Shown here: positions 3,832-64,000 of the stretch, in pieces
Layout of the letters: each line of letters starts with the position of its first letter
How positions within the stretch are numbered: the stretch's first letter is position 1
From: an uncultured Gammaproteobacteria bacterium
GTDB lineage: Bacteria; Patescibacteriota; Microgenomatia; Levybacterales; UBA12049
Assembly: GCA_964637955.1 (NCBI GenBank)
Contig: CAZWXQ010000003.1
Location: forward strand, 223,154 to 287,153
Direction: 5' to 3'
Length of the DNA stretch: 64,000 nucleotides
The notes under the pieces: model-generated
The model's database searches: none
Told to the model about the DNA's origin: nothing
What the model saw: only the letters and a program-made list of their open reading frames with translations
Position numbers and translations under genes: made by a program

Positions 3832-3849
3832 CATTGTTATAATGCTTTT

Positions 3850-5900: not shown

Positions 5901-5935
5901 TTTTAAAATTTGGTAGAATCTTCTAGATAAAACTA

Positions 5936-7024: not shown

Positions 7025-7052
7025 AAAAATGATGCTATAATACCTCAATCTT

Positions 7053-8087: not shown

Positions 8088-8254
8088 ACCCGTTGATTAA
8101 ATTGTAATTGCAATAAATTTTAATATAAAAAATATTGACCCCCATAGAGAAAGATTTAAAGGCATTAATAATCTGCCTGTTTATGATATTAAGAATAAGA
8201 AAGTGATAAAGAAAAAGGAAATATGCGAATAATAAAAAATACATTTTCGTACCA

Positions 8255-12216: not shown

Positions 12217-12341
12217 ATAATCTTAAATGTTATAATAGCTTAAGTATAATTTAAAGTGACTAAAGCCGCATTTTTTTTCATATTCTGGAGTATTCTCATT
12301 TTAATCATCTATGTATATTTTCTGCTTTGTAGAGGAGGATT

Positions 12342-49674: not shown

Positions 49675-50430
49675 TTATTGCAATACTGCTTCTTGAGGAA
49701 GGTATCTGAACAATAAATCTTGATCAAAGCTGCCTGGTGCAATAAGTCCATACTTTCTCGCCATTTCTACTGTTGGCTTTCCTGGAAAAGCAAAAGATGT
49801 TAGAAGTAAAATTCCTCCCTCAGTCATAACATTTGGGGCAAGCCTTAGAAACTCTTCTTTATTGTATCTGTCAATTGCGTCATGCAATCCGAAAGTGGTG
49901 ATTAAAGAATATTTTTTATTGTCTGGATTTGAAAGGAAAGAAAACATGCCCTGTTCTATAGCTGTAGATCCTGGAGCAACTCTGTCAATCCTTCTTCTTG
50001 CATGCTCGCTAAAGCGTCTGTCAAGAAGCGTCACTTTTTCAAATGGGATTCCAAGTTTTTGAGCTAATTCTAATTCCGCATGTGCTTGTCCTGCACCTAG
50101 ACCCAGCATCTCAGCTTGACTAAAATCAGTTTCTGGAAAGTAAAATTTAAGAGTATCTCGTGTAGTTTCGGCCCAGATACCATCTGAGTTTAGGTTGTCA
50201 TATGAATCTCCTATGTGTGAAACACGATCTAATTTGTGGGGTTGACTTTGTAATCCTGCTGAGCTACTCAACTCACTTAAAGCAGCAGACAATAATAGTG
50301 GCTTGGAGGGTAACACGCCAAAATATACACCATCAGCTACATGGCAGTAAAAATCCGATCTATCAATAATTTCAATAGGGGTCATTTCGTTCATGCGTGG
50401 GATTATATCAAGAAGGTTGGAGTATATCAA
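49675..50430 (-). CDS. Hypothetical protein with a methyltransferase-like Rossmann motif
   Basis: It is 251 aa with EMLGLGAGQAHAELELA as a motif-I-like segment. It starts 10 nt downstream of tRNA-Asp. Confidence 0.45.
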   Translation of the reverse strand: MIYSNLLDIIPRMNEMTPIEIIDRSDFYCHVADGVYFGVLPSKPLLLSAALSELSSSAGLQSQPHKLDRVSHIGDSYDNLNSDGIWAETTRDTLKFYFPETDFSQAEMLGLGAGQAHAELELAQKLGIPFEKVTLLDRRFSEHARRRIDRVAPGSTAIEQGMFSFLSNPDNKKYSLITTFGLHDAIDRYNKEEFLRLAPNVMTEGGILLLTSFAFPGKPTVEMARKYGLIAPGSFDQDLLFRYLPQEAVLQ

Positions 50431-51330: not shown

Positions 51331-52008
51331 CTATTTGCGAATAAGCTCTACTAAGATCAACCTAACGATAGCCCATCCATTAAAAAGGGGATGCATTTTG
51401 CGTTTACCGCCAATTCTTTTTGGTTCGCTTGCGGGAATCTCAGTTACTTTTAATTTTTCCTTCGCGCAGTGTATTGATAGCATGGGTTCTAGTCCTGCTC
51501 TCGGAATATTTATATCCATTTTTCTAACGACATCTTTTTTATAGGCGCGCATCATGACAAGAGTGTCTGTATACTTACCTCCAAAACATATATTAATTAT
51601 TTTTGTAAACATCCAGTTTCCAAATGCAGTAACTGGGTCATCGTCTTCACTTTTTGCGCCTTTCATGTATCTTGAGCCGATTACCATGTCATAATCTCCC
51701 TCCTTCATCTTTTTGACCAGAAGAGGAATTGCTTCAGGAAGAGAGTTTCCGTCGGGGCTAAATGATACGATTAGGTCACCTCGTGCAGCTTTAAGTCCTT
51801 CTCGAACAGCATTGGTTATACCTTTTTCTTTTTGCATGACGACTCTGTAGCCTTTGGACTTTGCATATTCTACGGTTCCATCTGTAGAGCCGCCATCTAA
51901 AAATAGGATTTCATCGACCCATTCTTTTTTAACATGAGGCATAACGACTTTCATGCCGTCAATTTCGTTTAACGTTGGAATAAGAAGAGTTACTTTATTT
52001 TTTTTCAT
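51331..52008 (-). CDS. GT2 polyprenol-phosphate sugar synthase (DPM1-like)
   Basis: VTLLIPTLNEIDGM...LFLDGGSTDGT is present. Length is 225 aa. Confidence 0.75.
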   Translation of the reverse strand: MKKNKVTLLIPTLNEIDGMKVVMPHVKKEWVDEILFLDGGSTDGTVEYAKSKGYRVVMQKEKGITNAVREGLKAARGDLIVSFSPDGNSLPEAIPLLVKKMKEGDYDMVIGSRYMKGAKSEDDDPVTAFGNWMFTKIINICFGGKYTDTLVMMRAYKKDVVRKMDINIPRAGLEPMLSIHCAKEKLKVTEIPASEPKRIGGKRKMHPLFNGWAIVRLILVELIRK

Positions 52009-52999
52009 TAAATACGTTGTATCTTTTATTTACGTCCTTTTTATTCGCCAAATACCATTCTATCGTCTCCTTGATTCCTTGTTCAAGTGTTACAAAGGGC
52101 GTGAATCCAAGAAGCTTCTTAGCCCGAGTTGTATCCATTAGTCTTTTTTTATCTCCCATGGGTTTGGTTTTATCCCACTTAATTTTAATAGGTCCGTTAG
52201 GCGCCAGGCTTGCTACTGTTTCTGCAATTTGCTTTATGGTTACCCCTGTTCCGCTTCCCAAATTAACTGGAACACTTATTCCATTTTCAAGAGCCAAAGA
52301 CATGCCACGGGCGACATCTTTGGCGTGAATGAGATCTCTTATTGGTGTGCCATCCCCCCATACTGTTAAAGGATTTTCTCCATTTACAGCTCTGTAAATA
52401 AGTGAAGGAATAACCATGGCATTCTCAGGATCAAAATTGTCATATGATCCGTACACGTTAGCCGGGCGAACTATTGAAATTTTATCCCAGCCATATTGAA
52501 TTTTGTAGCTTTCTGCTTGAAGTTCTCCCATGCGTTTTGCCCATCCTGCGAATTTATCATTTTCAGATGGAAAAGTTTTCCAAACATCATCCTCATAAAA
52601 AACTTCTGCTGGAGAATACACGCCAACTGAACTTGTATAAAGAAATCTTTTAACTTTTGCGCGACGGGAAGCCTCCATCATGTTGGTATTAAAAAGAATT
52701 GTTGGTACAAAAAAACTTGCAGGTTGTTCTTTTGTCATTTTCGGAGAGCCTTTTATGCCTGCGAGATGAAACACGAAGTCAATTCCTTCGCAAACCTGTC
52801 TGCAGTTATTTATATCTGTTAAATCTAATTTTGAAAACTTTGCTTTAGGATGAGCGCGAGATGAGTCATCAAGGGAAGCTATTGTAACTTTTGCACCCTT
52901 TTCAATCAGAAGATCGACGAGATATTTTCCAATCATGCCTGTCCCGCCTGTTACCAGTACTTTTTTATTTTTATAAAAATTATTTTTACTTTTTTCCAT
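51995..52999 (-). CDS. NAD-dependent nucleotide-sugar epimerase/dehydratase/reductase (SDR)
   Basis: KVLVTGGTGMIGKYL is the Rossmann motif. The start is assigned to the internal Met (MEKSKNN); the ORF-track start at 53137 adds a non-coding-looking leader. Confidence 0.7.
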   Translation of the reverse strand: MEKSKNNFYKNKKVLVTGGTGMIGKYLVDLLIEKGAKVTIASLDDSSRAHPKAKFSKLDLTDINNCRQVCEGIDFVFHLAGIKGSPKMTKEQPASFFVPTILFNTNMMEASRRAKVKRFLYTSSVGVYSPAEVFYEDDVWKTFPSENDKFAGWAKRMGELQAESYKIQYGWDKISIVRPANVYGSYDNFDPENAMVIPSLIYRAVNGENPLTVWGDGTPIRDLIHAKDVARGMSLALENGISVPVNLGSGTGVTIKQIAETVASLAPNGPIKIKWDKTKPMGDKKRLMDTTRAKKLLGFTPFVTLEQGIKETIEWYLANKKDVNKRYNVFNEKK

Positions 53000-53741
53000 T
53001 TGATTTCGTTTTTTTTGAAACTGTATTCGTAGGGATCGTGAAATATGCATATTTAAATGGAGACAAAAAAGCTGGAAGCTTAAGCCAAGGATATTCCAAA
53101 ACCACAAGATACCAGTAGAAAGGTCCAACAAGATCACTGAACTTTTTTGAGATTACCTCCTGTTTTTTAAATCCAGCTTTTTTTAAAAATCCATCCAAAG
53201 TGGACTGCGCAAGTACAAATGTCGGCATTGAGCCTGTGAGCTTAACTTTAATCCTTTCAAGTCTTTCCAAGTACTTAGGTAAAAAAATTTCGACAACTAT
53301 GATTTCTTTTTTACATACTCTTGCGAGCTCTTTGAAAAATTTCTCAAACTTCAAATATTGATCTTCATTTGATTCAAGTCCCAGGTGATGGAGTACGCCG
53401 TTTACTAAAACATAATCAAAGGAATTGTCTTTAAACGGTAAGTCCGCTCCGTCAGCTACTACTTGAATGTACTTATCTTTTCCATTTGATCTTTTTAGCA
53501 TCTCTTTATTTTTATCTACACCAACAAATTTAACTAGTGTTGCTGCGATCTCGTCTCCAAGGACATCGGACGGCTTAACTCCTCCGTTTCCAACATCAAG
53601 TACAGTAGATTTCTTTAGTCTTGGGTAATAGTTTTTAACTGCAACGTCGAAAATTGCTCTATTTACTCGAGAATTTACATCGTGTTCATAGTTTTTGCTG
53701 ATTTTGTCGAATTGATCTTTCTGCGATTTACTTAGACTCAT
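52986..53741 (-). CDS. Class I SAM-dependent methyltransferase
   Basis: Motif I is VLDVGNGGV. VGVDKN and FDYVLVNGVLHHL are present. Confidence 0.65.
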   Translation of the reverse strand: MSLSKSQKDQFDKISKNYEHDVNSRVNRAIFDVAVKNYYPRLKKSTVLDVGNGGVKPSDVLGDEIAATLVKFVGVDKNKEMLKRSNGKDKYIQVVADGADLPFKDNSFDYVLVNGVLHHLGLESNEDQYLKFEKFFKELARVCKKEIIVVEIFLPKYLERLERIKVKLTGSMPTFVLAQSTLDGFLKKAGFKKQEVISKKFSDLVGPFYWYLVVLEYPWLKLPAFLSPFKYAYFTIPTNTVSKKTKSNGKK

Positions 53742-54673
53742 ATATTTGCATAATCGTTTCTTTTAATTACCTGGTAGCCTTTAATTAATTCTGAAATACC
53801 TGATGACAAAGAAACCTTCGTTTTATATCCAGTCTTTTCTATTTTTTCATTTGAAACAATATAATTCCTTTGATCGGGATCCTTTCCAATAGGGGAATCA
53901 ACAAAGGTAAATTTTGGAATAAGTTTTTTAATTTCTTCGCAAAGTTCTCTTTTTGAGAGATTAGCTTCAGACAGGCCTACATTGTAGGCTTCATTTTTCA
54001 TTGTAGCAAAATTTTCCATAGTGTGGATAAACGCTCTAGCTACATCTCTAACGTGGATATAATTTCTCTTGAAGTCTGCTTCAAAAAGTACAACATAGCC
54101 ATCATTTAAGGCGCGGTAAGTAAAATCATTAACAAGAAGATCAAGTCTCATGCGAGGACTAATTCCAAAAACTGTTGCAAGTCGAAGCGTTATTACGTTT
54201 TTTTCTCGAAGTAGCGCTTTTTCTGCATCGACTTTTAGTTTTCCGTACAGTGAGATTGGATTAAGTGGCGATTTTTCGGTACAAAAAGCACCAGCCTTTC
54301 CGACCCCATATCCGCTATTAGTATTTGGAAAGATTATTTTTTGATTTGGTTTACGGAGTTTAAGAATTAGCTTAACCGCATCAAGATTAATTGATTTTGC
54401 TTCAAGTGGAAACTTGTCACATAATGGAGCGCCGACAAGACACGCGAGAGGAATAATAAAATCTTGGTTTAAGATAGCAGATTTCATCAATTTTTCATCT
54501 CGACAATCACCTCGAATTATCTTTAGATTTTTGTCATAACAAACATTGAGAAGGCTGTTTTGTTTGTAGTAAAAATTATCAACAACTGTTACTTCTATGC
54601 CTTTTTCAAGAAGCATAGGAACGAGAATCGAGCCAATATATCCGGCGCCTCCGGTCACTAAAACTTTTACCAT
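53738..54673 (-). CDS. NAD-dependent nucleotide-sugar epimerase/dehydratase (SDR)
   Basis: VLVTGGAGYIGS and YGKLKVDAEK (the YxxxK motif) are present. Confidence 0.75.
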   Translation of the reverse strand: MVKVLVTGGAGYIGSILVPMLLEKGIEVTVVDNFYYKQNSLLNVCYDKNLKIIRGDCRDEKLMKSAILNQDFIIPLACLVGAPLCDKFPLEAKSINLDAVKLILKLRKPNQKIIFPNTNSGYGVGKAGAFCTEKSPLNPISLYGKLKVDAEKALLREKNVITLRLATVFGISPRMRLDLLVNDFTYRALNDGYVVLFEADFKRNYIHVRDVARAFIHTMENFATMKNEAYNVGLSEANLSKRELCEEIKKLIPKFTFVDSPIGKDPDQRNYIVSNEKIEKTGYKTKVSLSSGISELIKGYQVIKRNDYANI

Positions 54674-54776: not shown

Positions 54777-55721
54777 TCATAAAATATTTTTTTTGTACCA
54801 CGAAATTGTTTTTTCTATGCCTTCGTCCAAGGTGATTTTTGGCTTCCAGCCATAAGTTTTTTTCGCATGACTCGCATCAACAGCCAAATCAAATTTAATT
54901 GTTGGTTTTGATGAATCAAACTCCAAGTTAATTTTTTTACCGGAAATTTTAATAATTTTAGTTATTACTTCTTTTACTGAGAAGGCTTGCTCTATGCCTA
55001 AGTTAACCAAATCAAATTTTTCTTTTTGTTTTTTCAAAACTAATTCAACGAAATCAACTAAATCTGAAACATAAAGCAGGTCTCTCTTTTCAGATCCATC
55101 TCCCCAAACTGAAATCTTTTCATCTTTAGCGGTTAAAACCTTCGTAACCGTTGCTCCAAAAAAATGAGATCTTTCTAAATCGTACTTGTCGTAAGGCCCA
55201 TAAATATTTGAATGTCTTATCGCAGTATATTTGGTGTCTCCAATTCTTGAGTAAAACTCACACATTTTTTCCAAATAAACTTTTGTCCAACCAACTCCAA
55301 AATACTTATTAATAATTTGAGAATTAAAGTCGGTTTCTTTTACAGGTTTTTTTTGACTTGGATACATTGTGGTACAGCTAAAGAAGATTACATGTTTAAC
55401 TTTTTCTTCAAAACATGCTCGAAAGATAAGGCTATTCATTACGGCATTATCAGTAACATGGATGTACGGCCTTGTAACAACATCCTTTGAGCCAGTAGTT
55501 ACTGCAGCTGCTTGAATTACGATATCTTTTCCTTTTATTATTTTATCTACTTCTTCTGTTTTTGTTAGGTCAACTTTTATTAGTTTAATGCTTTTAATGT
55601 TGGGTTTTTTGGTAAGGTATGTGCCATAAATTTGTAAATCTTTTCTTTTGGAAAGTCTCTCCGCAATATTTTGTCCAATAAAACCGCTTACTCCGCAGAT
55701 TAATACGCTTGTTTTTTTCAT
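54777..55721 (-). CDS. NAD-dependent nucleotide-sugar epimerase/reductase (SDR)
   Basis: The Rossmann motif is VLICGVSGFIGQN. Length is 314 aa. Confidence 0.7.
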   Translation of the reverse strand: MKKTSVLICGVSGFIGQNIAERLSKRKDLQIYGTYLTKKPNIKSIKLIKVDLTKTEEVDKIIKGKDIVIQAAAVTTGSKDVVTRPYIHVTDNAVMNSLIFRACFEEKVKHVIFFSCTTMYPSQKKPVKETDFNSQIINKYFGVGWTKVYLEKMCEFYSRIGDTKYTAIRHSNIYGPYDKYDLERSHFFGATVTKVLTAKDEKISVWGDGSEKRDLLYVSDLVDFVELVLKKQKEKFDLVNLGIEQAFSVKEVITKIIKISGKKINLEFDSSKPTIKFDLAVDASHAKKTYGWKPKITLDEGIEKTISWYKKNIL

Positions 55722-55723
55722 TT

Positions 55724-56905
55724 TTATTTAACGTTATTCAATATATCACACAACTCATAAATTTTCTTCTCCTCAAGTGTGGGGTAGTTGCCTATATAAA
55801 AACCATAAAAATGAATGTGCTCTACGTTGGGAAATCTTTTATATTCTTTATCGTCAACAAGTTTTTTTAAATAAGGTTGTCTTAATTGATTTCCTCCACC
55901 AGAAGTTCCTCTACGAAATTCAACTCCATGAGCAAGAAGTGCTTTCATAACCTTTTCTGCAAAAAGCATATTAGGTTTTTTTATAACTAAAACAAATGCG
56001 TAATTACTGCTGCCTTCAGTTTCAAAATCTGTTTGATATATTTCCGAATTTAAATTTTCTAAAAAAACCTTTAAATTTTTTGTGCGAATTTTAATGTTTT
56101 TATCCAATCTTTTTAATTGTGATAATCCCATAACCGCAGCTATTTCAGTAGAGCGCATGTTATATGCAGGATAGGCGAATATGAAATCTGGATTTAGGTC
56201 CGGATATTTTTTTTGATAATATTTTTTTGTTTTGATAGAACTGGCCTCTCGTACCATGCCATGAGCGCGAAGCATTCGAAGCATTTCATAAATTTGGGAG
56301 TTATTTGTTGAGATCATTCCACCCTCTATCGTACTCATGTGATGAGCGTAATAAAAAGAAAAATTTGACATAAGACCAAATGTGCCAAGCTTTTTCTTTT
56401 TAAACGTTGCTCCATGTGATTCGCAAACGTCCTCAATAAGTGGAATTTTTCTAAGTCGCAACTCGTCTAATAATTTTTGAGTCAGTCCGTTATGTCCTAA
56501 TATATGAGTTAAAAAAACAGCTTTTGTTTTAGAATTAATTTTTTTCAAAACCTCTTTTTCTTCCATTGCGAGCGTTCTGGGATTGATATCCACAAATACC
56601 GGCTTAAAACCACATTGCATAACAGACGCTATATCAGAAACCCAGGTTAGGGGAGGGACAATTATTTCTCCCAAGCCGTATGTTTCTCGCAGAGCAAGAA
56701 TACTTAAAAGGTTTGCTGATGAGCCAGAGTTAACAAAAACACTATATTTACTTCCAAGCCATTTTGACCATTCTTGTTCAAATTTTTGTACATTAGTTGA
56801 CTGAGTAAGTATTGGATCGTTTTTGGATGAGAGGAATTCAATAACATTATCTAAATCTTCCCTTAAAATATTGTTTTGCATGAGTGGCCACTGTAGATTT
56901 TTCAT
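55724..56905 (-). CDS. DegT/DnrJ/EryC1-family PLP/PMP-dependent sugar 3-dehydratase (ColD/E1-like)
   Basis: SGSSANLL is present. The active-site block FSFYYAHHMSTIEGG has His at the position that holds the Schiff-base Lys in aminotransferases, as in ColD/E1 3-dehydratases. There is no C-terminal Cys cluster. Confidence 0.65.
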   Translation of the reverse strand: MKNLQWPLMQNNILREDLDNVIEFLSSKNDPILTQSTNVQKFEQEWSKWLGSKYSVFVNSGSSANLLSILALRETYGLGEIIVPPLTWVSDIASVMQCGFKPVFVDINPRTLAMEEKEVLKKINSKTKAVFLTHILGHNGLTQKLLDELRLRKIPLIEDVCESHGATFKKKKLGTFGLMSNFSFYYAHHMSTIEGGMISTNNSQIYEMLRMLRAHGMVREASSIKTKKYYQKKYPDLNPDFIFAYPAYNMRSTEIAAVMGLSQLKRLDKNIKIRTKNLKVFLENLNSEIYQTDFETEGSSNYAFVLVIKKPNMLFAEKVMKALLAHGVEFRRGTSGGGNQLRQPYLKKLVDDKEYKRFPNVEHIHFYGFYIGNYPTLEEKKIYELCDILNNVK

Positions 56906-57951
56906 TAAAACGGTCCTTTAAATTCAAATTCTGTAGACTTCAATGGTTCTTTGGGAGTCCATGTACTTCTTTTACCCGTAATCATTTTATACGCAGCCTG
57001 AGCGATCTGCAAGCCGTTAGGATAGAAAAGTTTCTCAAGTGATGGAGTAGGGGGACATGTAACCTGAGCAAAGCCCATACGATGAACTTTTATTTTTTTC
57101 TTATCTTGCATTTTTTCGACAACAGATGCGGTAATTTCACTACTAGCTCCACTTGTTATCCAATCATTGTCCACAACAATTAAGTGTCCTGTTTTAGAGA
57201 CAGATTTTGTAATGGTATCGATATCAAGAGGAGAAAGCCATATAGGATCTATAACTTCCGCACTTATTCCGATAGATTCTAAATACTCTCTTGCATGCAT
57301 GCACTCAAGCTGCATTTGTGAGATGCCAACTAAGGTTACGTCTTTGCCTTTTGCTGTTATTCTTGCTTTACCAGGCTCTACGGTGTATTGTTTTTCTGGT
57401 ACAAATCCTTTTTGGAAATGAAGAATTCTATGTTCAACAAAAATTACAGGATTATTGTCTCTAATTGCTGCAGTTAAAGATCCTTTTGCATCGTATGGGG
57501 TAGTTGGCGCTACTACTTTGAGGCCCGGAACATGCATAAAAAATGAGTAAAGTCCTTGTGAGTGCTGTGCTCCCTGGCCCCAGCTTTTGCCAATCATGCC
57601 TCTTACTACAAGAGGAATATTTACTTGTCCGCCATACATATAATGGGTTTTAGCAGCAATATTCACAAGTTGATTCATAGCAAGCATCATAAAATCCATT
57701 CTGATGTGTACGTGGATTGGTTTTAGTCCTGCAAGCGCCATGCCTACCGCTACTCCTGTCATAGAGTCTTCAGAAAGAGGAGTACCAAAGACACGACTCG
57801 AACCAAATTTATCAACTAGTCCTTTTGTAGTGCCTTGAATTGCTTTTGGATCATCTACATCCAGTCCGAATACGAGAACAGATTTATCCCGACTCATTTC
57901 TTGGTCGGTAGCTTCTCTTATTGCTTCAATGTAGGAAAGTTTGCGTATCAT
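56905..57951 (-). CDS. TPP-dependent dehydrogenase E1 beta-like subunit (transketolase-like)
   Basis: MIRKLSYIEAIREA...VLVFGLDV is a typical E1-beta N-terminus. The start is assigned to the internal Met at 57951. Confidence 0.7.
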   Translation of the reverse strand: MIRKLSYIEAIREATDQEMSRDKSVLVFGLDVDDPKAIQGTTKGLVDKFGSSRVFGTPLSEDSMTGVAVGMALAGLKPIHVHIRMDFMMLAMNQLVNIAAKTHYMYGGQVNIPLVVRGMIGKSWGQGAQHSQGLYSFFMHVPGLKVVAPTTPYDAKGSLTAAIRDNNPVIFVEHRILHFQKGFVPEKQYTVEPGKARITAKGKDVTLVGISQMQLECMHAREYLESIGISAEVIDPIWLSPLDIDTITKSVSKTGHLIVVDNDWITSGASSEITASVVEKMQDKKKIKVHRMGFAQVTCPPTPSLEKLFYPNGLQIAQAAYKMITGKRSTWTPKEPLKSTEFEFKGPF

Positions 57952-57952
57952 G

Positions 57953-58918
57953 TTAATCTTTAAAAACATCGCTGTAAAGCTCGGAGTCATTTGGGAATGG
58001 ACTTTTTTCTGCAAAATCGAAAGCATCTTGAATCTCTTTTTCTACAGTGTTTTCGATTTTATTGCGACTTTGTGTATCGATTAGCTCTCCAACTTTTTTA
58101 ACCTGGTCGTTTTTTACCCAAATCGCTCTTTCTTTTTCGCTTCTATATCCCAAATGAAAATCGTCATTTGGCCCTACATGTTCTTTCCACCTGTAAGTCA
58201 TGCATTCAAAGAAAAATGGACCTGAAATTCCTTGTCTTAAAGCTTGAATTTTAGATCCTACGCTGTCATATATTTTGAAAACGTCATTATTCTCAATTTT
58301 TTCAGAAGGTACTCCGAAAGATTTAACTTTTTCTAAAATGCTACTCCCTTGTCTTTGCTTTAAATGAGTATGTATTGCATAAAAGTTATTCTCGCAAATA
58401 AAGATAATTGGAAGTTTTTTAATGACAGCAAAATTGATACTTTCCCAAAAAACACCTTCATCAGTTGCACCGTCTCCAAAAAAACAGACTACAATAGACT
58501 TACTGCCTTTAGATTTTAGGGTATATGCATATCCAACTGCATGAGGAATGCTTGTTCCGACAACAGCAGATGTTCCCATAAAACCAGCTTCGATATCAAT
58601 TAGATGCATAGACCCTCCTTTTCCTTTAGCGCATCCCGTTGCTTTTCCATAGAGTTCTGCAATCATTTTACTTAAATCTCCACCTTTAGCTAGGTAAAGC
58701 GCATGGCCTCTATAAGTACCGAAAACGATATCGGTTGCTTTAAGAGCTTCACAAATACCAACTGAAACAGCCTCTTGGCCAATTGATAAGTGTACAGGAG
58801 ACTTAATTTTATCTGTTGGATAAACTTTCGCAATTTCTTCTTCAACGCGTCTAATTTTATATAAAGATTTATAGAATTTATTTGGTGATATTTTTTTCAT
58901 TTTTTTTAAACCATTCAA
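57953..58918 (-). CDS. TPP-dependent dehydrogenase E1 alpha-like subunit
   Basis: The TPP-binding motif GDGATDEG and YRGHALYLAKG are present. Length is 321 aa. Confidence 0.75.
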   Translation of the reverse strand: MNGLKKMKKISPNKFYKSLYKIRRVEEEIAKVYPTDKIKSPVHLSIGQEAVSVGICEALKATDIVFGTYRGHALYLAKGGDLSKMIAELYGKATGCAKGKGGSMHLIDIEAGFMGTSAVVGTSIPHAVGYAYTLKSKGSKSIVVCFFGDGATDEGVFWESINFAVIKKLPIIFICENNFYAIHTHLKQRQGSSILEKVKSFGVPSEKIENNDVFKIYDSVGSKIQALRQGISGPFFFECMTYRWKEHVGPNDDFHLGYRSEKERAIWVKNDQVKKVGELIDTQSRNKIENTVEKEIQDAFDFAEKSPFPNDSELYSDVFKD

Positions 58919-59822
58919 TAGTGAGATTTAATCCAACATCTAATGATGTTTTTGGCTCCCACCCTAAGGCTTTTATTTTTGAAGAATCTAAAAGTTTCCT
59001 TGGCATGCCATCTGGATGAGAAGTTTCAAATTTAATTTTTCCTTTAAATCCTGTTTGCTTACTGATTTCCTCAATCAATTCTTTTATAGATATATCATTT
59101 CCTGATCCAACATTAATAAACTCTGGATGATTATAATTTTGCATTAAAAAATATAGTGCATCTGCAAGGTCGTCAACATAGAGAAATTCTCTTTTTACTT
59201 TTCCAGTTCCCCAAATTTCAATGGAAGATAAATTATTTCGCTTGGCATCTAAGAATTTTCTTATAAGTGCCGGTAAAACATGAGAAACTTCTGGGTCAAA
59301 TTTATCGTTTGGGCCATAGATCGTTGCTGGCATCGCACAGATAAATTCTTTTTTAAATTGTTTAGAAATATACTCACAAAGTTTTAAGCCAGCGATTTTT
59401 GCAACAGCATATCCTTCATTGGAGGGTTCAAGTTTTCCAGTCAAAAGAAATTCTTCTTTCATTGGTTGAGGACTATCTTTTGGATAAATACATGAACTTA
59501 ATAAAAATAATAATTTTTTGACGTCTTTTTTATGCGATGTCCAGATTAAATTATTTTGAATCATTATGTTTTCATGCAAGAACTGCGCTTGGTGTGTCAT
59601 ATTGGCTTTAATTCCACCTACTTTGGCAGCAGCGATGATTACATATTCAGGTTTTTCTTCATCAAAAAATTTTTCAACTAAATCTTGTCTAGTTAAATCT
59701 AGCTCTGAATGAGTTTTAGTTATAATATTTTTATAGCCTTCTTTTTGGAACTTGGACAAAAGAGAAGAACCAACAAGTCCAGTGTGACCTGCGATATAAA
59801 TTCTAGCTTTTTTAGGTATCAT
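58878..59822 (-). CDS. GDP-L-fucose synthase family 3,5-epimerase/4-reductase (Fcl/ColC-like)
   Basis: Long blocks match E. coli Fcl: IYIAGHTGLVGSS, AAAKVGGI, KLLFLLSSCIYPK and EGYAVAKIAGLKLCE. The start is assigned to the internal Met at 59822. Confidence 0.8.
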   Translation of the reverse strand: MIPKKARIYIAGHTGLVGSSLLSKFQKEGYKNIITKTHSELDLTRQDLVEKFFDEEKPEYVIIAAAKVGGIKANMTHQAQFLHENIMIQNNLIWTSHKKDVKKLLFLLSSCIYPKDSPQPMKEEFLLTGKLEPSNEGYAVAKIAGLKLCEYISKQFKKEFICAMPATIYGPNDKFDPEVSHVLPALIRKFLDAKRNNLSSIEIWGTGKVKREFLYVDDLADALYFLMQNYNHPEFINVGSGNDISIKELIEEISKQTGFKGKIKFETSHPDGMPRKLLDSSKIKALGWEPKTSLDVGLNLTIEWFKKNEKNITK

Positions 59823-60819
59823 ATTTATATTCCTCCAGGATATCATAAAAAATAATTTGTGATCCTTCATGTTCAAATTTGAAGGGTACATGAACGAGCT
59901 TTTTTAATTTTTCTTTAACATTTTTTTGATTTTTTGGAGGAACAAAAAGGAGCAGGAATCCGCCGCCACCAGCGCCAATAAGTTTTCCACCTATTGCACC
60001 CGCGCTTTTTGCCTTTTTATATATTTCATCAATCTCGGAATTGGAGACAATTGGGCTTAGGGATCTTTTTAATTTCCAAAATTCGTCGAGCAACTCCCCT
60101 AATTCATTTAAATTTTTCTTACTGTTTAAAATTGAAATTGCTTCATCTACCGAAGCTTGCATAAGACTAAGCTGTTTTTGTTGGTTGTTAATTTTTTTTA
60201 CATAACTTTTTGCTATATTTGAAGCTGTTCTCGGAATTCCCGTATAAAATAACATGAGATGTTTTTCTAGTTCATTAATGCGATTTGCAGAAAGAGTCAT
60301 TGGTTTAACAATAATATTTCCGTCTCTTTGAAAAGTGATATGGTTAAATCCTCCATATGCGGCAAGAGTTTGATCTTGATATCCCACAGTTTCTTTTAAG
60401 ATTTCTTGTTCAAGTCGAATGCCTTCACGCGCCAATTGCTGTTTACTTAACATTTGTCCCTGCAAGGCATGGAGAGCGTTAAGGAGTCCCACCGTGAGAG
60501 CAGAACTTGTACCAAGTCCTGATCTTGCGGGTAAATCTCCATCGTGATGAATTGCTAATCCATCCTGAATTTTCAAGAAACGAATAGCTTCTCTTACTGC
60601 AGGATGCTTAATTTCATCAATTGTATTACATAATTCATTTTTTGAATACACAATACGATATTTGTGCCAAAAGAATGGAGGTAAATATCTTACATTTAAA
60701 TAAGAATATTTGTTAATTGTGGTAGCAAGGACTGCACCGCCGTGTTCTTTAACCCAATCGGGATAATCCGTACCTCCACCAAAAAAAGATATGCGGAAAG
60801 GGGTTCTGCTTATGACCAT
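59812..60819 (-). CDS. GHMP-family sugar kinase, HddA-like (D-glycero-D-manno-heptose 7-phosphate kinase)
   Basis: PFRISFFGGGTDYP and GLGTSSA GHMP motifs are present. It is adjacent to gmhA. Confidence 0.7.
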   Translation of the reverse strand: MVISRTPFRISFFGGGTDYPDWVKEHGGAVLATTINKYSYLNVRYLPPFFWHKYRIVYSKNELCNTIDEIKHPAVREAIRFLKIQDGLAIHHDGDLPARSGLGTSSALTVGLLNALHALQGQMLSKQQLAREGIRLEQEILKETVGYQDQTLAAYGGFNHITFQRDGNIIVKPMTLSANRINELEKHLMLFYTGIPRTASNIAKSYVKKINNQQKQLSLMQASVDEAISILNSKKNLNELGELLDEFWKLKRSLSPIVSNSEIDEIYKKAKSAGAIGGKLIGAGGGGFLLLFVPPKNQKNVKEKLKKLVHVPFKFEHEGSQIIFYDILEEYKYDT

Positions 60820-61430
60820 ATTTCTTTATGCTTCATTTTTACAAAAAGATAATGCTCAACAATTTCACAGAGTATGTGCTCAACAATCAAAAGAGATTCT
60901 TGAATATATTGGGTATTTTTGCTTGGAATAGAGATTGACAAATCTGCCACTTTTAAAAGTTCTCCGGAGCTGCCAGTTAAAGCAAGAGTGTGCAATTTTT
61001 TATGATTAGCTGCCTTAATAGCTCTGATAATATTCTTAGAGTTTCCGCTCGTTGAGATACCTATTAATAGATCGTTTTTTTGACCAAGTCCCTGCACTTG
61101 ACGTTCAAAAACTCCCTCAAAGCCAAAGTCATTGGAAAAAGCAGTTATCACTGATGAATCAGCAGTTAGGGCAAAGGCAGGTAGCGTTGGCCTACTTAGA
61201 TTTTTATCGAGCATATTAACAAATTCCGCCGCTATATGCTGACAATCGGCAGCGCTTCCTCCATTCCCACAAAGTAAAATTTTGCCACCTGATAAAAATG
61301 TGTCAACAATTAGCTGAGATGCAGCTAGTATGGAATCGTTACATGTTTTTAATGTGAGCTGATTGACTCGTATGCTTTCTAGTAAGTGTTTCTCTGCTTT
61401 TTTGCGATAGAAGTTATTGCTGTTAGCCAT
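60810..61430 (-). CDS. gmhA: SIS-domain phosphoheptose isomerase (sedoheptulose-7-phosphate isomerase)
   Basis: GNGGSAADCQHIAAEF matches the GmhA GNGGS..D..HFAEE block. Length is 206 aa. Confidence 0.85.
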   Translation of the reverse strand: MANSNNFYRKKAEKHLLESIRVNQLTLKTCNDSILAASQLIVDTFLSGGKILLCGNGGSAADCQHIAAEFVNMLDKNLSRPTLPAFALTADSSVITAFSNDFGFEGVFERQVQGLGQKNDLLIGISTSGNSKNIIRAIKAANHKKLHTLALTGSSGELLKVADLSISIPSKNTQYIQESLLIVEHILCEIVEHYLFVKMKHKEIWS

Positions 61431-61469: not shown

Positions 61470-62153
61470 TTATGGTTTGGAAGACATGATTTTATCGTAA
61501 ACTAATTGGGGAGTTATGTCTTTCCAAGTTGTAAATATTGCGTCCGGTTGCAGATCAAAAACTAATCCTTCGTGAACTGGAAAAACAACTACTCTTGCTC
61601 CAGCTTTTTCTGCTGCGATTTTGCCTGGTGGAGAATCTTCATGAACGAGCATCTTTTCAGGAGATGCTTGTATTCCGAAAATTTCAGAAGCCTTAATGTA
61701 AACTTCTGGGTCAGGCTTTAATTTTTTAACACTAGACTCAGTCAATATATGTCCTGGGTTGAAAAATCTTAATAGATCAGATCTTCTAAGTATCTCAAAT
61801 GCATTCCCATCAGGTGTAATTGAGGCAAGCACTAATTCTCCTCCTAGGCTTCTAACTGTTTCAAGATATTCTGAAACTCCTTCCCTAGGTGAAATAGGAT
61901 AAGAATAAAGTAGCTCTTCATATAGCTTTTCTTTTTCTGCACGAATTATTATTGGATCTATTTTATCGGTAGTCATTTTTGAGATTGCTTCAGATATTGC
62001 TTTATCTCCAGCTCCAACAAAACTATGGAATTCATGCTGTCCGAATCTTACACCGTAATTTGAGGCAACTTGCTCAAGAGCTTCTTGGTGTAATCCTTCT
62101 AAATCAACAGCTGTTCCTTCGAGATCTACTGCATTGTATTGAAAAATTTCCAT
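61470..62153 (-). CDS. HAD-superfamily (subfamily IA) phosphatase
   Basis: Motif I is VDLEGT, which has Glu at +2 instead of Asp. The motif IV region is HEDSPPG. Confidence 0.6.
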   Translation of the reverse strand: MEIFQYNAVDLEGTAVDLEGLHQEALEQVASNYGVRFGQHEFHSFVGAGDKAISEAISKMTTDKIDPIIIRAEKEKLYEELLYSYPISPREGVSEYLETVRSLGGELVLASITPDGNAFEILRRSDLLRFFNPGHILTESSVKKLKPDPEVYIKASEIFGIQASPEKMLVHEDSPPGKIAAEKAGARVVVFPVHEGLVFDLQPDAIFTTWKDITPQLVYDKIMSSKP

Positions 62154-62286: not shown

Positions 62287-63006
62287 ATGCAAGCGATTAT
62301 CATGGCAGGAGGGAAGGGTACAAGGCTCCAAAAAGTTACGAATGATGAAATCCCCAAAGCGTTGGTTCAAATAAACAATAAGCCTTTACTTGACTATGTC
62401 ATAGAGCATGCAATCAAAAATGATTTTGACAAAATAATTATATGTACTGGTCACTTAGGCCACAAAATTCAAGAGTATATTAGCAATAAAAATTATGATG
62501 CATCAATTTATATTTCTCAAGAAAGTGAGCCAATGGGCACAGCCGGTTCTCTTCATTTGATTTCTGATTTATTGGAAGATGAATTTTTTATTATATATGC
62601 TGATGTTTATTCGACAATAAATTTAAAAAAAATGTTTGATTTTCACAAAAAAACAAAAGCAAATGTAACAATTGCAGTTCATAAATCTAATCACCCGCAA
62701 GATAGTACAGTTGTAAAAATTGATAAAAACGGTAAGTACTTAGCTATGATTCAAAAACCGGGTGATAAGTGGAAAGAGTACGGCAATTTGACGCAAACAT
62801 CTCTTTATATAGTAAAAAAAGACATCTTAAATTATGTTAAAAAAAACATAAAGCAAGATTTTGAATCAGACATTTTTCCATTATTGCTTAACAAAGGTGA
62901 GGATATTTATGGCTACATGACTTCTGAATACACAAAAGATATGGGAACTCCGGAAAGGTATAGCGATCTTATAAATAAATTACAGGTAGAAAACCTTGGC
63001 AAATGA
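62287..63006 (+). CDS. Sugar-1-phosphate nucleotidyltransferase, HddC/ManC N-terminal-domain-like (probable heptose-1-phosphate guanylyltransferase)
   Basis: AIIMAGGKGTRL and EPMGTAGSL are present. Length is 239 aa. Confidence 0.8.
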   Translation: MQAIIMAGGKGTRLQKVTNDEIPKALVQINNKPLLDYVIEHAIKNDFDKIIICTGHLGHKIQEYISNKNYDASIYISQESEPMGTAGSLHLISDLLEDEFFIIYADVYSTINLKKMFDFHKKTKANVTIAVHKSNHPQDSTVVKIDKNGKYLAMIQKPGDKWKEYGNLTQTSLYIVKKDILNYVKKNIKQDFESDIFPLLLNKGEDIYGYMTSEYTKDMGTPERYSDLINKLQVENLGK

Positions 63007-64000
63007 AGAGAATTGATTATACCGTTTGTTTTTTGATTGGTTTTTCTGCTTTAATCTCTCGAATTCCGTTTGTTGAAAAATTTCAGTCATTTTGGGATGG
63101 GCCTCAGCTAACCATTGGAATATCACATTTTTCAGTTGTCGAGCATACGCCAGCAGCTCCTGGATATCCATATTTTATTGGTTTGGGAAAATTTTTCCAT
63201 TTATTTTTTTCTGATCTTCATACATCAATTGTTGCAGTGAGCGTATTTGCAGCTGTCGTGGGTGCTATTACTCTTTATATTGTTGGACTAAAAATGTTCA
63301 ATCGTTTTGTTGGTTTCGCTGCCTCTGTAATTTTTTTAACTGGTTCAACTTTTTATTTCTTTTCAATAGCTCCTCATCCATACGATTTACTAATTACAGC
63401 GACTACGCTACTGGCTTATAGCGTCTATCGAATTTTTGTTCAAAAAAAACAAGAAGGAATATTTTTGGGACTTACAATAGGGATTTGTATTGGAATACGT
63501 CCTCAAGAAATTATAAATATTTTCATTTTATTTCTTCTTGGATTCTTGGTTCTTTCTACTAAAGAAAAAATCAAATCAATATTAGCTTCTGCTGTCATAT
63601 GTTTTTCTTGGTTTATTCCGATTGTTAATAGTGTAGGTTTTAGAAATTATTTTACAGAAGCTTCAGCAATTGCTAAAACAGGCATAGCTAGTCAATCGAT
63701 TTCAAATCATATCGAGTCGATGTTTAAAGGATTCCTTCTGAGTTTTGGAATTTCTGGAGGGTTCCTTGCTTATTATTCACTCAAGTTAAATCGAATAAAG
63801 AAAATCTCCTCAAAAGAAAAAGACCTTCTGATTTTTTACGGCGCTTGGATGCTGCCTGGATTTATTTACAATTTATTTTTTAGATCAGATGCTGTGGGTT
63901 ATCAGTTTAGTTATTTAATACCGTTACTTTTTCTAATCTCAAATGCAATCTGGTATTTAACAAGGAAAAGTAAATTTTTATATTTCTTTGTGCTTGCTTG
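63003..64000 (+). CDS. Polytopic membrane protein, GT-C-like glycosyltransferase. The 3' end lies beyond the window.
   Basis: The ATG at 63003 overlaps the upstream stop (ATGA). The frame is open to the window end. It is multi-TM with loop motif FWDGPQ...HTPAAPGYPYF. Confidence 0.45.
   Translation, partial: MKRIDYTVCFLIGFSALISRIPFVEKFQSFWDGPQLTIGISHFSVVEHTPAAPGYPYFIGLGKFFHLFFSDLHTSIVAVSVFAAVVGAITLYIVGLKMFNRFVGFAASVIFLTGSTFYFFSIAPHPYDLLITATTLLAYSVYRIFVQKKQEGIFLGLTIGICIGIRPQEIINIFILFLLGFLVLSTKEKIKSILASAVICFSWFIPIVNSVGFRNYFTEASAIAKTGIASQSISNHIESMFKGFLLSFGISGGFLAYYSLKLNRIKKISSKEKDLLIFYGAWMLPGFIYNLFFRSDAVGYQFSYLIPLLFLISNAIWYLTRKSKFLYFFVLA

Follow-up and report, generated by a model that had tools for sequence, protein, structure and literature searches.

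Branched and deoxygenated sugars in described systems

Stand-alone E1-type enzyme pairs that branch sugars have been described in actinomycetes. This alpha-KADH2 set includes AviB1/AviB2 (avilamycin eurekanate), Pau11/Pau12 or Plm8/Plm9 (paulomycose), EvdU5/EvdS3, the enzymes of aldgarose and kosinostatin, and KbDH-alpha/beta (kibdelomycin). C-acetyl branching has been assigned to AviB1/B2, Pau11/12 (Plm8/9) and EvdU5/S3 (PMC4753412, PMC4802897, PMC10338323), and KbDH-alpha/beta performs pyruvate-ketone carboligation in vitro, in a class that appears restricted to C2 branches (PMC12247030). Reduction or another modification of the C2 branch follows (PMC4753412, PMC4802897, PMC10338323, PMC12247030). 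The locus described here lies in a 64-kb stretch of DNA (the window). Its E1 alpha and E1 beta likewise lack E2/E3 and sit among nucleotide-sugar enzymes predicted to produce a deoxy-keto sugar. The expected reaction is also alike, as hydroxyethyl-ThDP from pyruvate would attack a ring ketone to give a tertiary alcohol that bears a C2 branch. The likeness is one of context and described chemistry. The scaffold would be a GDP-heptose in the window and is a dTDP/UDP deoxyhexose or pentose in the alpha-KADH2 set, and only in the window would the acceptor arise from a Cj1427-like C4 dehydrogenase and a ColD-type 3-dehydratase. Whereas the alpha-KADH2 set belongs to secondary-metabolite clusters of Actinomycetota, the window holds a polyprenyl-phosphate/GT-C surface-glycan locus, whose cassette occurs in over 12 phyla, Patescibacteria and Cyanobacteria among them.

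A similar logic is followed in the pathways of yersiniose A (DdhA-D, YerE, YerF) and of ErwE/MygE. The sugar is activated and converted to a 4-keto form, the 3-hydroxyl is removed by a PMP-dependent dehydratase, a ThDP-bound acyl anion is added to C4, and the branch is reduced (PMC9306805). YerE places a pyruvate-derived C2 unit on CDP-3,6-dideoxy-4-keto-glucose, so that its acceptor is the same kind of 3-deoxy-4-keto sugar as that proposed here (PMC9306805), and both products would enter a cell-surface glycan. However, YerE is a single-chain flavoenzyme of the acetolactate-synthase/decarboxylase type and not an E1 alpha/beta pair, and the yersiniose route uses a CDP-hexose and an Fe-S E1/E3 dehydratase in place of a GDP-heptose and a ColD-type, reductase-independent enzyme.

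The capsular GDP-heptose system of Campylobacter jejuni comprises GmhA, HddA, GmhB, HddC, the C4-dehydrogenase Cj1427, the HS:5 C3-dehydratase and the C4-reductases MlghC/DdahC. The window encodes homologues of the C4 dehydrogenase and the PLP-dependent C3-dehydratase, of the enzymes that activate the heptose, and of the Fcl-like reductases. The Campylobacter pathways include no ThDP enzyme ('thiamin' occurs 0 times in PMC10680097), unlike the window. GDP-D-glycero-3-deoxy-4-keto-heptose has been made in vitro with the Campylobacter counterparts, and the 3-deoxy-6-hydroxy series came from an artificial enzyme combination (PMC10680097), whereas in the window Cj1427-like and ColD-like enzymes form a natural and conserved combination. 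The GDP-colitose pathway (GMD, ColD, ColC) also has a His-for-Lys 3-dehydratase beside an Fcl/ColC-like SDR, acting on a GDP-4-keto sugar. Colitose, however, needs no C-C bond formation, while the E1 pair stands between the ColD-type and Fcl-like genes in the window, where the substrate would be a heptose and the 4-keto group would come from a dehydrogenase, not a 4,6-dehydratase.

The E1 pair and its conserved neighbours

Two minus-strand open reading frames, 56905..58026 and 57953..58918, were confirmed in the window. They encode an E1 alpha-type ThDP subunit (57953..58900, minus strand, 315 aa from ATG, identical to database protein P0001) and an E1 beta-type subunit (56905..57951, minus strand, 348 aa, alternative start at 57969). 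The first-pass annotation had described a GDGATDEG TPP motif in E1 alpha and a transketolase-like E1 beta, and both descriptions hold. E1 alpha matches Pfam E1_dh (1.6e-61), and its ThDP-binding motif is canonical, with NN 26 residues past GDG (GDG-X26-NN); E1 beta matches Transket_pyr (6e-37) and Transketolase_C (1.6e-28). The pair matches TPP_enzyme_C weakly (5.8e-5) and has no Pfam match to TPP_enzyme_N. The top PDB matches of E1 alpha are human PDH E1a (1e-44) and BCKDH E1a (2e-43), with near-equal scores, and that of E1 beta is 1ik6 (1.5e-64).

One base separates the E1 alpha stop (TAA, 57953-57955) from the E1 beta ATG at 57951, in line with the spacing of 1 nt reported earlier. In an identical Logan contig the gene caller chose the upstream ATG at 57969, which gives a 17-nt overlap, and the two genes are translationally coupled whichever start holds. 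The stop codon of E1 beta and the start codon of the following gene overlap as TAATG, and 23 nt are shared between E1 alpha and the 3' end of the Fcl-like gene before it. Both genes are intact and tightly coupled, and the genes of the cluster overlap or sit 1-2 nt apart.

That sugar-modifying enzymes flank the pair, as first annotated, is borne out by Pfam and NCBIfam matches. The ColD-type PLP/PMP-dependent GDP-4-keto-sugar 3-dehydratase (55724..56905, minus strand, 393 aa) has ColD as its top PDB match (2gms, 3.9e-59), against 5.6e-31 for 3bcx, an Fe-S-containing CDP-sugar 3-dehydrase. Its SFYYAHHMSTIEGG aligns with SHH of ColD, and therefore His replaces the catalytic Schiff-base Lys. On the other side lies a GDP-L-fucose-synthase-like (Fcl-like) SDR (58878..59822, minus strand, 314 aa), which reaches 429 bits with NCBIfam GDPFucSynFcl (below the cut-off of 500) and matches GDP-fucose synthases in the PDB (1e-98), as well as 7anh and 7anc, which are MlghC and DdahC, heptose C4 reductases of C. 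jejuni (names, PMC7949155). It is a candidate C5-epimerase/reductase or branch-ketone reductase. The Cj1427-like SDR (53738..54673, minus strand, 311 aa) matches PDB 6vo6 at 9.3e-116; we take 6VO6 and 6VO8, deposited under a generic name, to be structures of Cj1427.

Heptose activation is assigned by homology to a further set of genes. The HddA-like GHMP kinase (heptose 7-phosphate kinase; 59812..60819, minus strand) has GHMP kinase domains and matches NCBIfam GlMnHpPKinHddA under the cut-off (3.4e-47). GmhA, the sedoheptulose 7-phosphate isomerase (60810..61430, minus strand, SIS_2 domain), matches NCBIfam phosphoheptose isomerase (1e-59; 183 bits with TIGR00441 against a cut-off of 209). An HAD-family phosphatase (61470..62153, minus strand; HAD_2/Hydrolase domains; beta-phosphoglucomutase-family hydrolase 2.4e-19) is a candidate for the heptose 1,7-bisphosphate phosphatase step but no orthologue of GmhB, and its slot holds a GmhB-type HAD in other loci. 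The divergently transcribed sugar-1-phosphate nucleotidyltransferase (HddC/ManC-like; 62287..63006, plus strand; NTP_transferase 8e-35) matches mannose-1-P guanylyltransferase (9e-35) and HddC (6e-28), both under cut-off.

The remaining genes may serve tailoring and transfer. An extended SDR, distantly Fcl/GalE-like (54777..55721, minus strand, 314 aa; Epimerase domain 9e-41; top PDB matches GDP-fucose synthases, about 1e-22), is a candidate tailoring reductase or epimerase and has a 70% homologue after the ColD-like gene in locus L012. Another, distantly Fcl-like (51995..52999, minus strand, 334 aa; Epimerase domain 3.6e-51; PDB GDP-fucose synthetase 4.6e-32), has a 73% identical homologue in the same locus. 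They are accompanied by a class I SAM-dependent methyltransferase (52986..53741, minus strand, 251 aa; Methyltransf_11 6e-15) and a GT2 polyprenyl-phosphate glycosyltransferase-like protein of AglJ/Dpm1 type (51331..52008, minus strand, 225 aa; Glycos_transf_2 1.4e-21; AglJ 1.2e-36 and dolichyl-phosphate hexose transferase 3.5e-23, both under cut-off). A PMT_2/GT-C-type polytopic membrane glycosyltransferase (63003..64000, plus strand; PMT_2 1.2e-7, 32.5 bits against a cut-off of 26.1) overlaps the end of the nucleotidyltransferase gene and is partial, continuing past the window end.

The conserved cassette is SDR(Cj1427-like)-NTase-GmhB-GmhA-HddA-Fcl-E1a-E1b-ColD. Identities are 60-84% across more than 12 phyla, with hosts in Cyanobacteria, Patescibacteria, Binatia, Acidobacteriota, Chloroflexota, Planctomycetota, Verrucomicrobiota and others, and related cassettes occur in cultured Solidesulfovibrio magneticus RS-1 and Azospirillum spp. 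A His-type DegT (ColD-like) gene directly follows E1 beta in 28 of the 33 close loci with sequence there. The HddA-like kinase (54-72% identity, at most 8 kb from the pair) is kept in 27 of 38 close loci, and the Cj1427-like SDR (50-57%) in 22 of 38. Judged from this conserved cassette and the gene overlaps, the E1 pair is committed to a sugar pathway.

Predicted branching of a GDP-heptose

The E1 pair is probably an E2-independent ThDP carboligase of the alpha-KADH2 type, which would branch C4 during GDP-heptose modification; gene context and analogy are the basis of this predicted chemistry. The first-pass annotation had proposed that the pair attaches a C2 branch to a keto-sugar like AviB1/B2, a reading that the present comparison supports. 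The presence of a Cj1427-like dehydrogenase and a ColD-type 3-dehydratase on the flanks makes the proposal more specific. After activation, for which enzymes are assigned by homology, C4 would be oxidised by the Cj1427-like SDR, and the ColD-type enzyme would remove the C3 hydroxyl to give GDP-3-deoxy-4-keto-heptose. This acceptor is supported by the ColD match (3.9e-59, with the catalytic His) and the 6vo6 match (9.3e-116). E1 alpha/beta would then decarboxylate pyruvate and add the resulting hydroxyethylidene-ThDP to the C4 ketone, forming a tertiary alcohol with a C-acetyl branch by analogy with YerE, AviB1/B2, Plm8/9 and KbDH. One of the Fcl-type SDRs might reduce the branch ketone to 1-hydroxyethyl, epimerise the ring, or both, and the methyltransferase may tailor the product. 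As their domain types suggest, the GT2 enzyme could load the sugar onto polyprenyl phosphate and the PMT_2/GT-C enzyme could pass it to an acceptor at the surface. Pyruvate as donor, C4 as position and an acetyl or hydroxyethyl branch are predictions. If they are true, the pathway would yield a 3-deoxy-4-C-branched heptose of nine carbons in a surface glycan. To our knowledge, no natural 3-deoxy-4-C-branched heptose has been described, and the pair most likely serves to form a cell-surface sugar that is new to the literature.

The same enzyme class might instead serve the same sugar pathway through another carboligation, which is possible but rather unlikely. The donor could be hydroxypyruvate, 2-oxobutyrate or the 2-oxoglutarate of the ColD half-reaction; the acceptor could be the unreduced 4-keto-heptose or a carbonyl at C6 or C7; or the chain could be extended rather than branched, possibly with a B12-binding radical SAM enzyme. 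The Fcl family acts as 3,5-epimerase/4-reductase. Branching at C4 leaves no C4 ketone, so the Fcl-like SDR would either act ahead of branching or have a function unusual for its family. This strongly Fcl-like SDR is a constant companion of the pair, except in loci where a GMD-like 4,6-dehydratase-type SDR replaces it. The Cj1427-like, ColD-like and Fcl-like trio could alone yield a colitose-like 3-deoxy-heptose, in which case pathway logic would not dictate the E1 step. The YerE-type relatives ErwE and MygE take C4-C8 donors and not pyruvate (PMC9306805), so that the donor cannot be read from context, and 2-oxoglutarate is released by ColD chemistry and consumed by Cj1427 (PMC10680097). In 20 close loci a B12-binding radical SAM gene comes after the ColD-like one, and most relatives outside Patescibacteria have such a gene in addition, which suggests that the chemistry may exceed a simple C2 branch. 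However, this gene is absent from the window and from L012, and is therefore dispensable for the core step. C4 is the only carbonyl predicted from the conserved partners, and in a 2025 review the alpha-KADH2 branching enzymes have so far been C2 only, with pyruvate alone for KbDH (PMC12247030).

Relation to dehydrogenase complexes and carrier-dependent enzymes

The pair shares fold, domain order, ThDP motif and catalytic residues with the heterotetrameric E1 of pyruvate, acetoin and branched-chain complexes. The E1_dh and Transket_pyr/Transketolase_C architecture is complete, PDH E1 alpha and beta are the top NCBIfam models, and the residue aligned with human E1 alpha His263 and the E1 beta QHSQ motif, whose roles we presume, are kept. 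The window also covers no more than 64 kb of its contig, which is about 300 kb long. Nevertheless, it is very improbable that the pair is a genuine dehydrogenase E1 with E2/E3 elsewhere in the genome and an incidental operon position. Neither subunit reaches its curated PDH cut-off (289 bits against 394 for PDH_E1_alph_y; 300.6 against 321 for the E1 beta model), and their reading frames overlap those of sugar genes. As the first-pass annotation had stated, E2/E3 partners are absent from the window, where neither 2-oxoacid_dh, Biotin_lipoyl or Pyr_redox domains (Pfam, all ORFs of at least 380 aa and others), nor motif-scan hits, nor tblastn matches to six genuine E2/E3 proteins were found. The same six proteins found none across 83 related loci, about 1.3 Mb in all. 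By motif scan and tblastn, E2/E3 are missing within 10 kb on either side of the pair in all 38 close loci and in 42 more distant ones, except for one distant locus (L065), where a lipoyl-like stretch lies about 9 kb away. E2/E3 genes just outside the window had been named beforehand as evidence against sugar branching; the gene leaving it (63003 to 64000) encodes the PMT_2-type glycosyltransferase, and the homologous loci agree.

Nor does the pair cluster with genuine 2-oxoacid dehydrogenases. It is 38-44% identical to E2/E3-linked E1s but 60-84% to cassette members of its own clade in unrelated phyla. A concatenated alpha+beta tree, built without AviB1/B2 or other characterised sugar-branching E1 pairs, separates 77 E2-less from 8 E2-linked pairs with 100/100 bootstrap. 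E1 beta has a C-terminal extension ending in FKGPF, a tail seen in none of the four E2/E3-linked beta subunits compared. In related pairs of cultured organisms PGAP names beta a 'transketolase C-terminal domain-containing protein', and in E2-linked pairs an 'alpha-ketoacid dehydrogenase subunit beta'. Natural alpha-beta fusions occur in six cyanobacterial loci. Because of the sub-cut-off PDH scores, the absence of E2/E3 from the window and the related loci, and the tree split, the pair is not part of a 2-oxoacid dehydrogenase complex.

It is more improbable still that the pair hands a ThDP-bound C2 unit to a carrier protein without acting on a sugar, as E1-like enzymes of the RenH/QncN type do in tetrahydroisoquinoline NRPS pathways: RenH, from the renieramycin cluster, matches at 30% identity, and a pair on Streptomyces plasmid pSGRIFU1, beside NRPS/PKS genes (an NRPS condensation-domain gene), has a like tail (FAGPY) and falls within the E2-less clade, but ACP, E2-like and NRPS/PKS genes are absent from the window cluster and the conserved cassette, where the conserved neighbours are all nucleotide-sugar enzymes.

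The E1 pair and its operon

The first-pass annotation had described two adjacent genes encoding an E1 alpha/beta pair, spaced by a single nucleotide and flanked by sugar-modifying enzymes, and all of these features were recovered, with both ORFs on the minus strand. The E1 alpha gene most likely extends over 57953-58900 (minus strand) and encodes 315 aa, identical to the database protein P0001. E1 beta (56905-57951, minus strand) lies one base away when ATG 57951 is taken as its start; with the alternative ATG 57969, chosen by the gene caller on an identical 7.5-kb Logan contig, the two genes overlap by 17 nt. An exact database look-up of E1 beta with the ATG 57951 start gave no match, the database gene call starting upstream. 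In Pfam, E1 alpha matches E1_dh (1.6e-61, 208 bits) and E1 beta matches Transket_pyr (6e-37) and Transketolase_C (1.6e-28). The ThDP motif read from the E1 alpha translation is canonical (GDGATDEG, with NN 26 residues past GDG), and the pair has the domain architecture and the GDG-X(24-27)-NN spacing of alpha2beta2-type E1 enzymes, whose active site is located at the alpha/beta interface. E1 alpha is about equally distant from the human PDH and BCKDH E1 alpha subunits.

Overlapping or nearly abutting starts and stops couple the pair translationally to its neighbours in an operon that extends from the HAD phosphatase and GmhA genes (~62150) as far as a GT2 gene (51331): the upstream Fcl-like gene overlaps E1 alpha by 23 nt, and the stop codon of E1 beta and the start codon of the next gene overlap in TAATG. 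A promoter and terminator scan of the window gave counts no higher than expected from shuffling. On the minus strand, the phosphatase, a non-GmhB HAD, is followed by GmhA (1e-59) and by an HddA-like GHMP kinase (3.4e-47, well below the equivalog cut-off). The Fcl-like SDR preceding E1 alpha resembles GDP-fucose synthase (429 bits; PDB 1e-98) and also matches the C. jejuni heptose reductases MlghC and DdahC. Downstream of E1 beta are found a DegT-family protein, an extended SDR, an SDR resembling the Campylobacter GDP-heptose C4 dehydrogenase Cj1427, a SAM methyltransferase, a second Fcl-like SDR and the terminal AglJ/Dpm1-like GT2. The Cj1427-like SDR matches PDB entry 6vo6 (9.3e-116), which we take to be the Cj1427 structure, the file being titled 'putative sugar-nucleotide epimerase/dehydratase'. 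Divergent to the operon are an HddC/ManC-like nucleotidyltransferase (6e-28 and 9e-35, well below the equivalog cut-offs) and a PMT_2 (GT-C) membrane glycosyltransferase, which overlaps the nucleotidyltransferase stop and runs off the window. The putative heptose-activation set comprises a clear GmhA, a candidate kinase and a candidate nucleotidyltransferase, both below cut-off, and a phosphatase of another HAD type than GmhB. We infer that GDP is the activating nucleotide because the downstream enzymes belong to GDP-sugar families.

The DegT-family protein directly after E1 beta (55724-56905, minus strand) has as its best solved relative ColD, the PLP-type GDP-4-keto-sugar 3-dehydratase (3.9e-59, 203.7 bits), versus 5.6e-31 and 111 bits for 3bcx, an Fe-S CDP-sugar 3-dehydrase. 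In the alignment, the motif SFYYAHHMSTIEGG of the DegT-family protein pairs with the SHH of ColD, which places a His where the Schiff-base Lys would be expected, and this HH motif is essentially invariant among 27 close homologues. Judged by its sequence, the protein is a ColD-type 3-dehydratase.

Conservation and variation of the cassette

Relatives of E1 alpha number in the thousands, the best 120 clusters lying at 66-84% identity. A locus scan with one genome per species yielded 80 loci. In the 38 closest (59-75% identity), a cassette recurs that comprises a Cj1427-like SDR, a nucleotidyltransferase, a GmhB-type HAD, GmhA, HddA, an Fcl-like SDR, E1 alpha, E1 beta and a ColD-like gene. These loci originate from Cyanobacteria, Patescibacteria, Acidobacteriota, Binatia, Chloroflexota, Planctomycetota, Verrucomicrobiota, Poribacteria, Brocadiales and deltaproteobacterial MAGs, and the cassette is spread over more than a dozen phyla at 60-84% identity. 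The nearest relatives of the window's cluster genes are from Patescibacteria. A His-type DegT gene lies directly 3' of E1 beta in 28 of the 33 close loci with sequence there, HddA within 8 kb of the pair in 27/38, and a Cj1427-like SDR within the same distance in 22/38. Cultured carriers have also been found: Nodosilinea PCC 7104, Azospirillum plasmids with pairs at 52% identity, and plasmid pDMC1 of Solidesulfovibrio magneticus RS-1, whose related cassette reads GT2, GT2, radical SAM, NUDIX, kinase, E1 alpha, E1 beta, GDP-fucose synthase, His-type DegT, SDR, nucleotidyltransferase and GT-C.

Several variants accompany this core. A B12-binding radical SAM protein of ~510 aa (PF02310 + PF04055) is encoded directly 3' of the ColD-like gene in 20 close loci, including L003, L005, L006, L010, L013, L014, L016-L018, L020, L028, L029, L035 and L045. 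A second radical SAM protein of ~650-700 aa occurs in six places in five loci (twice in L009). Both types are absent from the window, which has two extra SDRs and the methyltransferase instead, and the Levyibacteriota locus L012 similarly carries two extra SDRs in the radical SAM place. In L002, L008, L015, L020, L033 and L036, an SDR of the GDP-mannose-4,6-dehydratase type (PF16363, 1e-68), immediately up- or downstream of the E1 pair, replaces or joins the Fcl-like gene, which suggests 6-deoxy (3,6-dideoxy) forms of the predicted branched heptose. In the distant loci L057, L063, L069, L074 and L075 (pairs 42-44% identical), the gene after E1 beta encodes a DegT aminotransferase of the Lys type (SFYPAK...) in place of the His-type dehydratase. 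These loci recall kibdelomycin, whose branch ketone is transaminated (PMC12247030), and may specify aminoethyl-branched sugars. Six cyanobacterial loci (L003, L006, L009, L017, L018 and L025) encode alpha and beta as a natural fusion in one ORF of 678-686 aa, which is convenient for expression and structure work.

Predicted chemistry of the pair

E1 alpha/beta pairs have been assigned C2 branching in the avilamycin, paulomycin and everninomicin pathways (PMC4753412, PMC4802897, PMC10338323), and KbDH-alpha/beta couples pyruvate to cyclic ketones in vitro (PMC12247030). The feature shared with this sugar-branching alpha-KADH2 class (AviB1/B2, Plm8/9, KbDH-alpha/beta) is a stand-alone E1 pair amid nucleotide-sugar genes that make a keto sugar, a likeness by context. 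The window operon has such a context in its heptose activation genes, Cj1427-like SDR and ColD-type dehydratase, in an arrangement kept across phyla. The predicted acceptor, GDP-3-deoxy-4-keto-heptose, was made in vitro by Campylobacter enzymes (PMC10680097), and the acceptor of YerE for the C2 branch of yersiniose is a 3-deoxy-4-keto nucleotide sugar (PMC9306805). From this YerE-like acceptor and the AviB, Plm and KbDH precedents, we infer that the E1 pair would add pyruvate-derived hydroxyethyl-ThDP onto C4 of GDP-3-deoxy-4-keto-heptose; such C4 two-carbon branching by the pair is fairly probable. An SDR would then reduce the acetyl branch or epimerise the ring, and the branched sugar would be loaded on polyprenyl phosphate by the GT2 and passed to the GT-C transferase. 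Candidate branch-modifying partners in the cluster are three Fcl-type SDRs and one methyltransferase; Pau7, the branch reductase known so far, belongs to another family, the aldo-keto reductases (PMC4753412).

One weak point of C4 branching is the lack of an evident task for an Fcl-type 3,5-epimerase/4-reductase after C4 becomes quaternary. The Cj1427-like, ColD-like and Fcl-like trio alone could yield a colitose-like 3-deoxyheptose. That the E1 pair carries out a different carboligation in the same pathway is possible, if doubtful. A hint of more elaborate chemistry comes from the radical SAM partner found in most relatives. It is rather unlikely that the core of Cj1427-like SDR, ColD-type dehydratase, E1 pair and Fcl-like SDR, with radical SAM in most phyla, makes an unseen higher-carbon or branched sugar beyond a simple C2 branch; such chemistry may, for example, draw on a donor other than pyruvate or combine ThDP steps with radical ones. 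If it did, this sugar would be widespread in the surface glycans of Patescibacteria, Cyanobacteria, Binatia, Planctomycetota and others, and the E2-independent, mostly FxGPF-tailed clade would represent a distinct ThDP carboligase family, beyond a few actinomycete oddities.

To date, sugar branching by E1 alpha/beta pairs has been described for actinomycete antibiotics, and a 2025 review of ThDP enzymes links secondary metabolites with alpha-KADH2-type branching, and LPS and envelope sugars with the YerE type; ~120 uncharacterised alpha-KADH2 clusters are cited there from a 2024 study (PMC12247030). Compared with the known alpha-KADH2 cases, the predicted enzyme logic is alike; what sets the cassette apart is a GDP-heptose as scaffold, an acceptor supply of the ColD/Cj1427 type, a surface-glycan setting and a very broad range of phyla. 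YerE-type enzymes are single chains with TPP_enzyme_N, M and C domains plus FAD, in contrast to the E1 alpha/beta architecture of the window; E1 alpha gives a weak partial Pfam match to TPP_enzyme_C (5.8e-5) and none to TPP_enzyme_N or M. The Campylobacter 3-deoxy-4-keto-heptose came from an artificial enzyme mix (PMC10680097), whereas here the Cj1427-like and ColD-like homologues occur naturally in the neighbourhood of the E1 pair, an association that is conserved. A literature search found no link between an E1 pair and heptoses. If the C4 branching proposed here is correct, E1-type branching would also serve GDP-heptoses of cell-surface glycans, and the cassette would have reached genome-reduced Patescibacteria, in which a dehydrogenase E1 would have little other use. 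It would also predict a nine-carbon 3-deoxy-4-C-branched heptose, a type of sugar not known to have been described.

Three further ideas were rejected. An erwiniose- or caryophyllose-type product of a radical SAM and heptose route was dropped because Steitz et al. proposed that YerE-like enzymes form such sugars from a CDP-hexose and long 2-oxoacid donors, with in vitro tests of ErwE supporting this for erwiniose (PMC9306805). A role as electron source for an Fe-S 3-dehydrase, with E3 replaced, was discarded because the dehydratase is of the ColD type, which needs no reductase (PMC10680097). A split transketolase making sedoheptulose 7-phosphate was set aside, the E1_dh match reaching 208 bits and the DXS/TK matches being merely marginal.

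Relation to dehydrogenase E1 subunits and the rest of the window

The E1_dh and Transket_pyr/Transketolase_C architecture and the ThDP motif are those expected of a component of a genuine dehydrogenase complex, but such a role is very improbable on the following evidence. Scores against the NCBIfam PDH models fall below the curated cut-offs, both for E1 alpha (289.2 vs 393.85) and for E1 beta (300.6 vs 321 and 289 vs 454). The first-pass annotation had reported no E2/E3 partners in the window, and this held: Pfam, regex motifs and tblastn detected no E2/E3 domain in the scanned ORFs of the 64 kb, and none was seen within 10 kb on either side of the pair in the 38 close loci. Genuine E2/E3 proteins were added as tblastn queries because the regex motifs recovered only some of the positive controls (E3 2/2, E2 DHRxxDG 1/3, lipoyl 1/3). 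Six such queries, from three of the eight control operons, matched nothing in the window and loci L001-L083 except one lipoyl-like stretch in the distant locus L065, ~9 kb from its E1 pair. The controls, plasmid operons of Priestia, Enterococcus, Phaeobacter, C. difficile, Brevibacillus, Acinetobacter, Novosphingobium and Tsukamurella, do show the order E1 alpha-E1 beta-E2-E3. E2-linked E1s are 38-44% identical to the window pair. In a midpoint-rooted, distance-based neighbour-joining tree of concatenated alpha and beta sequences (86 taxa, 631 columns), the 77 E2-less pairs and the 8 E2-linked pairs, a small and wholly plasmid-borne sample, split in 100/100 bootstraps. The window pair groups with two Patescibacteria loci, L004 and L012, in 97/100; together with gene content, this grouping is the basis for assigning the window to Patescibacteria. 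Clustering with genuine 2-oxoacid dehydrogenases, which the first-pass annotation had named, along with E2/E3 genes just outside the window, as evidence against a branching role, is clearly not seen, albeit with this limited sample. 'PDH E1' annotations in such genomes should not be taken to indicate pyruvate dehydrogenase or central carbon metabolism.

The E2-less clade also contains the pair of the Streptomyces griseofuscus plasmid pSGRIFU1 (L082, 11992-14038; beta tail FAGPY). It adjoins genes for an NRPS condensation domain, an ACP, a PPTase and ketosynthases, with no sugar genes adjacent, so members of this clade may serve non-sugar pathways too. For the window pair, which sits among sugar-nucleotide genes, a carrier-protein role is highly implausible.

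The window E1 beta ends in an extension of ~20 residues (56905-56970) terminating in ...EFKGPF-COOH. Among the loci compared (L002-L081, L082, L083 and L089), 59 of 74 beta homologues of the E2-less type have a [FWY]xGP[FYL] C-terminus, as do the Azospirillum and Streptomyces plasmid pairs. It is missing in 4/4 checked E2/E3-linked beta subunits and in one sugar-context clade (Omnitrophota/Delta/S. magneticus). The tail could occlude the E2-binding face, as placed by the G. stearothermophilus E1-PSBD structure.

Elsewhere in the window, a family-X DNA polymerase with PHP (46881-48647), a MurT-like ligase (43069-44364), a GGDEF protein (33858-34748), F-type ATP synthase subunits, GatA/GatB and DnaE are encoded, a housekeeping context that fits a small-genome, low-GC bacterium. 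At the thresholds applied, no Pfam family was assigned to the sizeable ORFs (251-488 aa) at 48677-49591, 49675-50430, 16682-17920, 17941-19146 and 22320-23786. A second glycan locus occupies the left end (1273-15103), where GC is 27-31% vs 33-39% elsewhere in the window. It encodes two GT2-PMT_2 fusion proteins (1273-3831 and 8255-10459), a Wzx-type flippase (3850-5067), a GT1 (5936-7024), a GMD-like SDR (7053-8087), a PMT_2 protein (12342-13919) and a Wzy_C/O-antigen-ligase-like protein (13907-15103).
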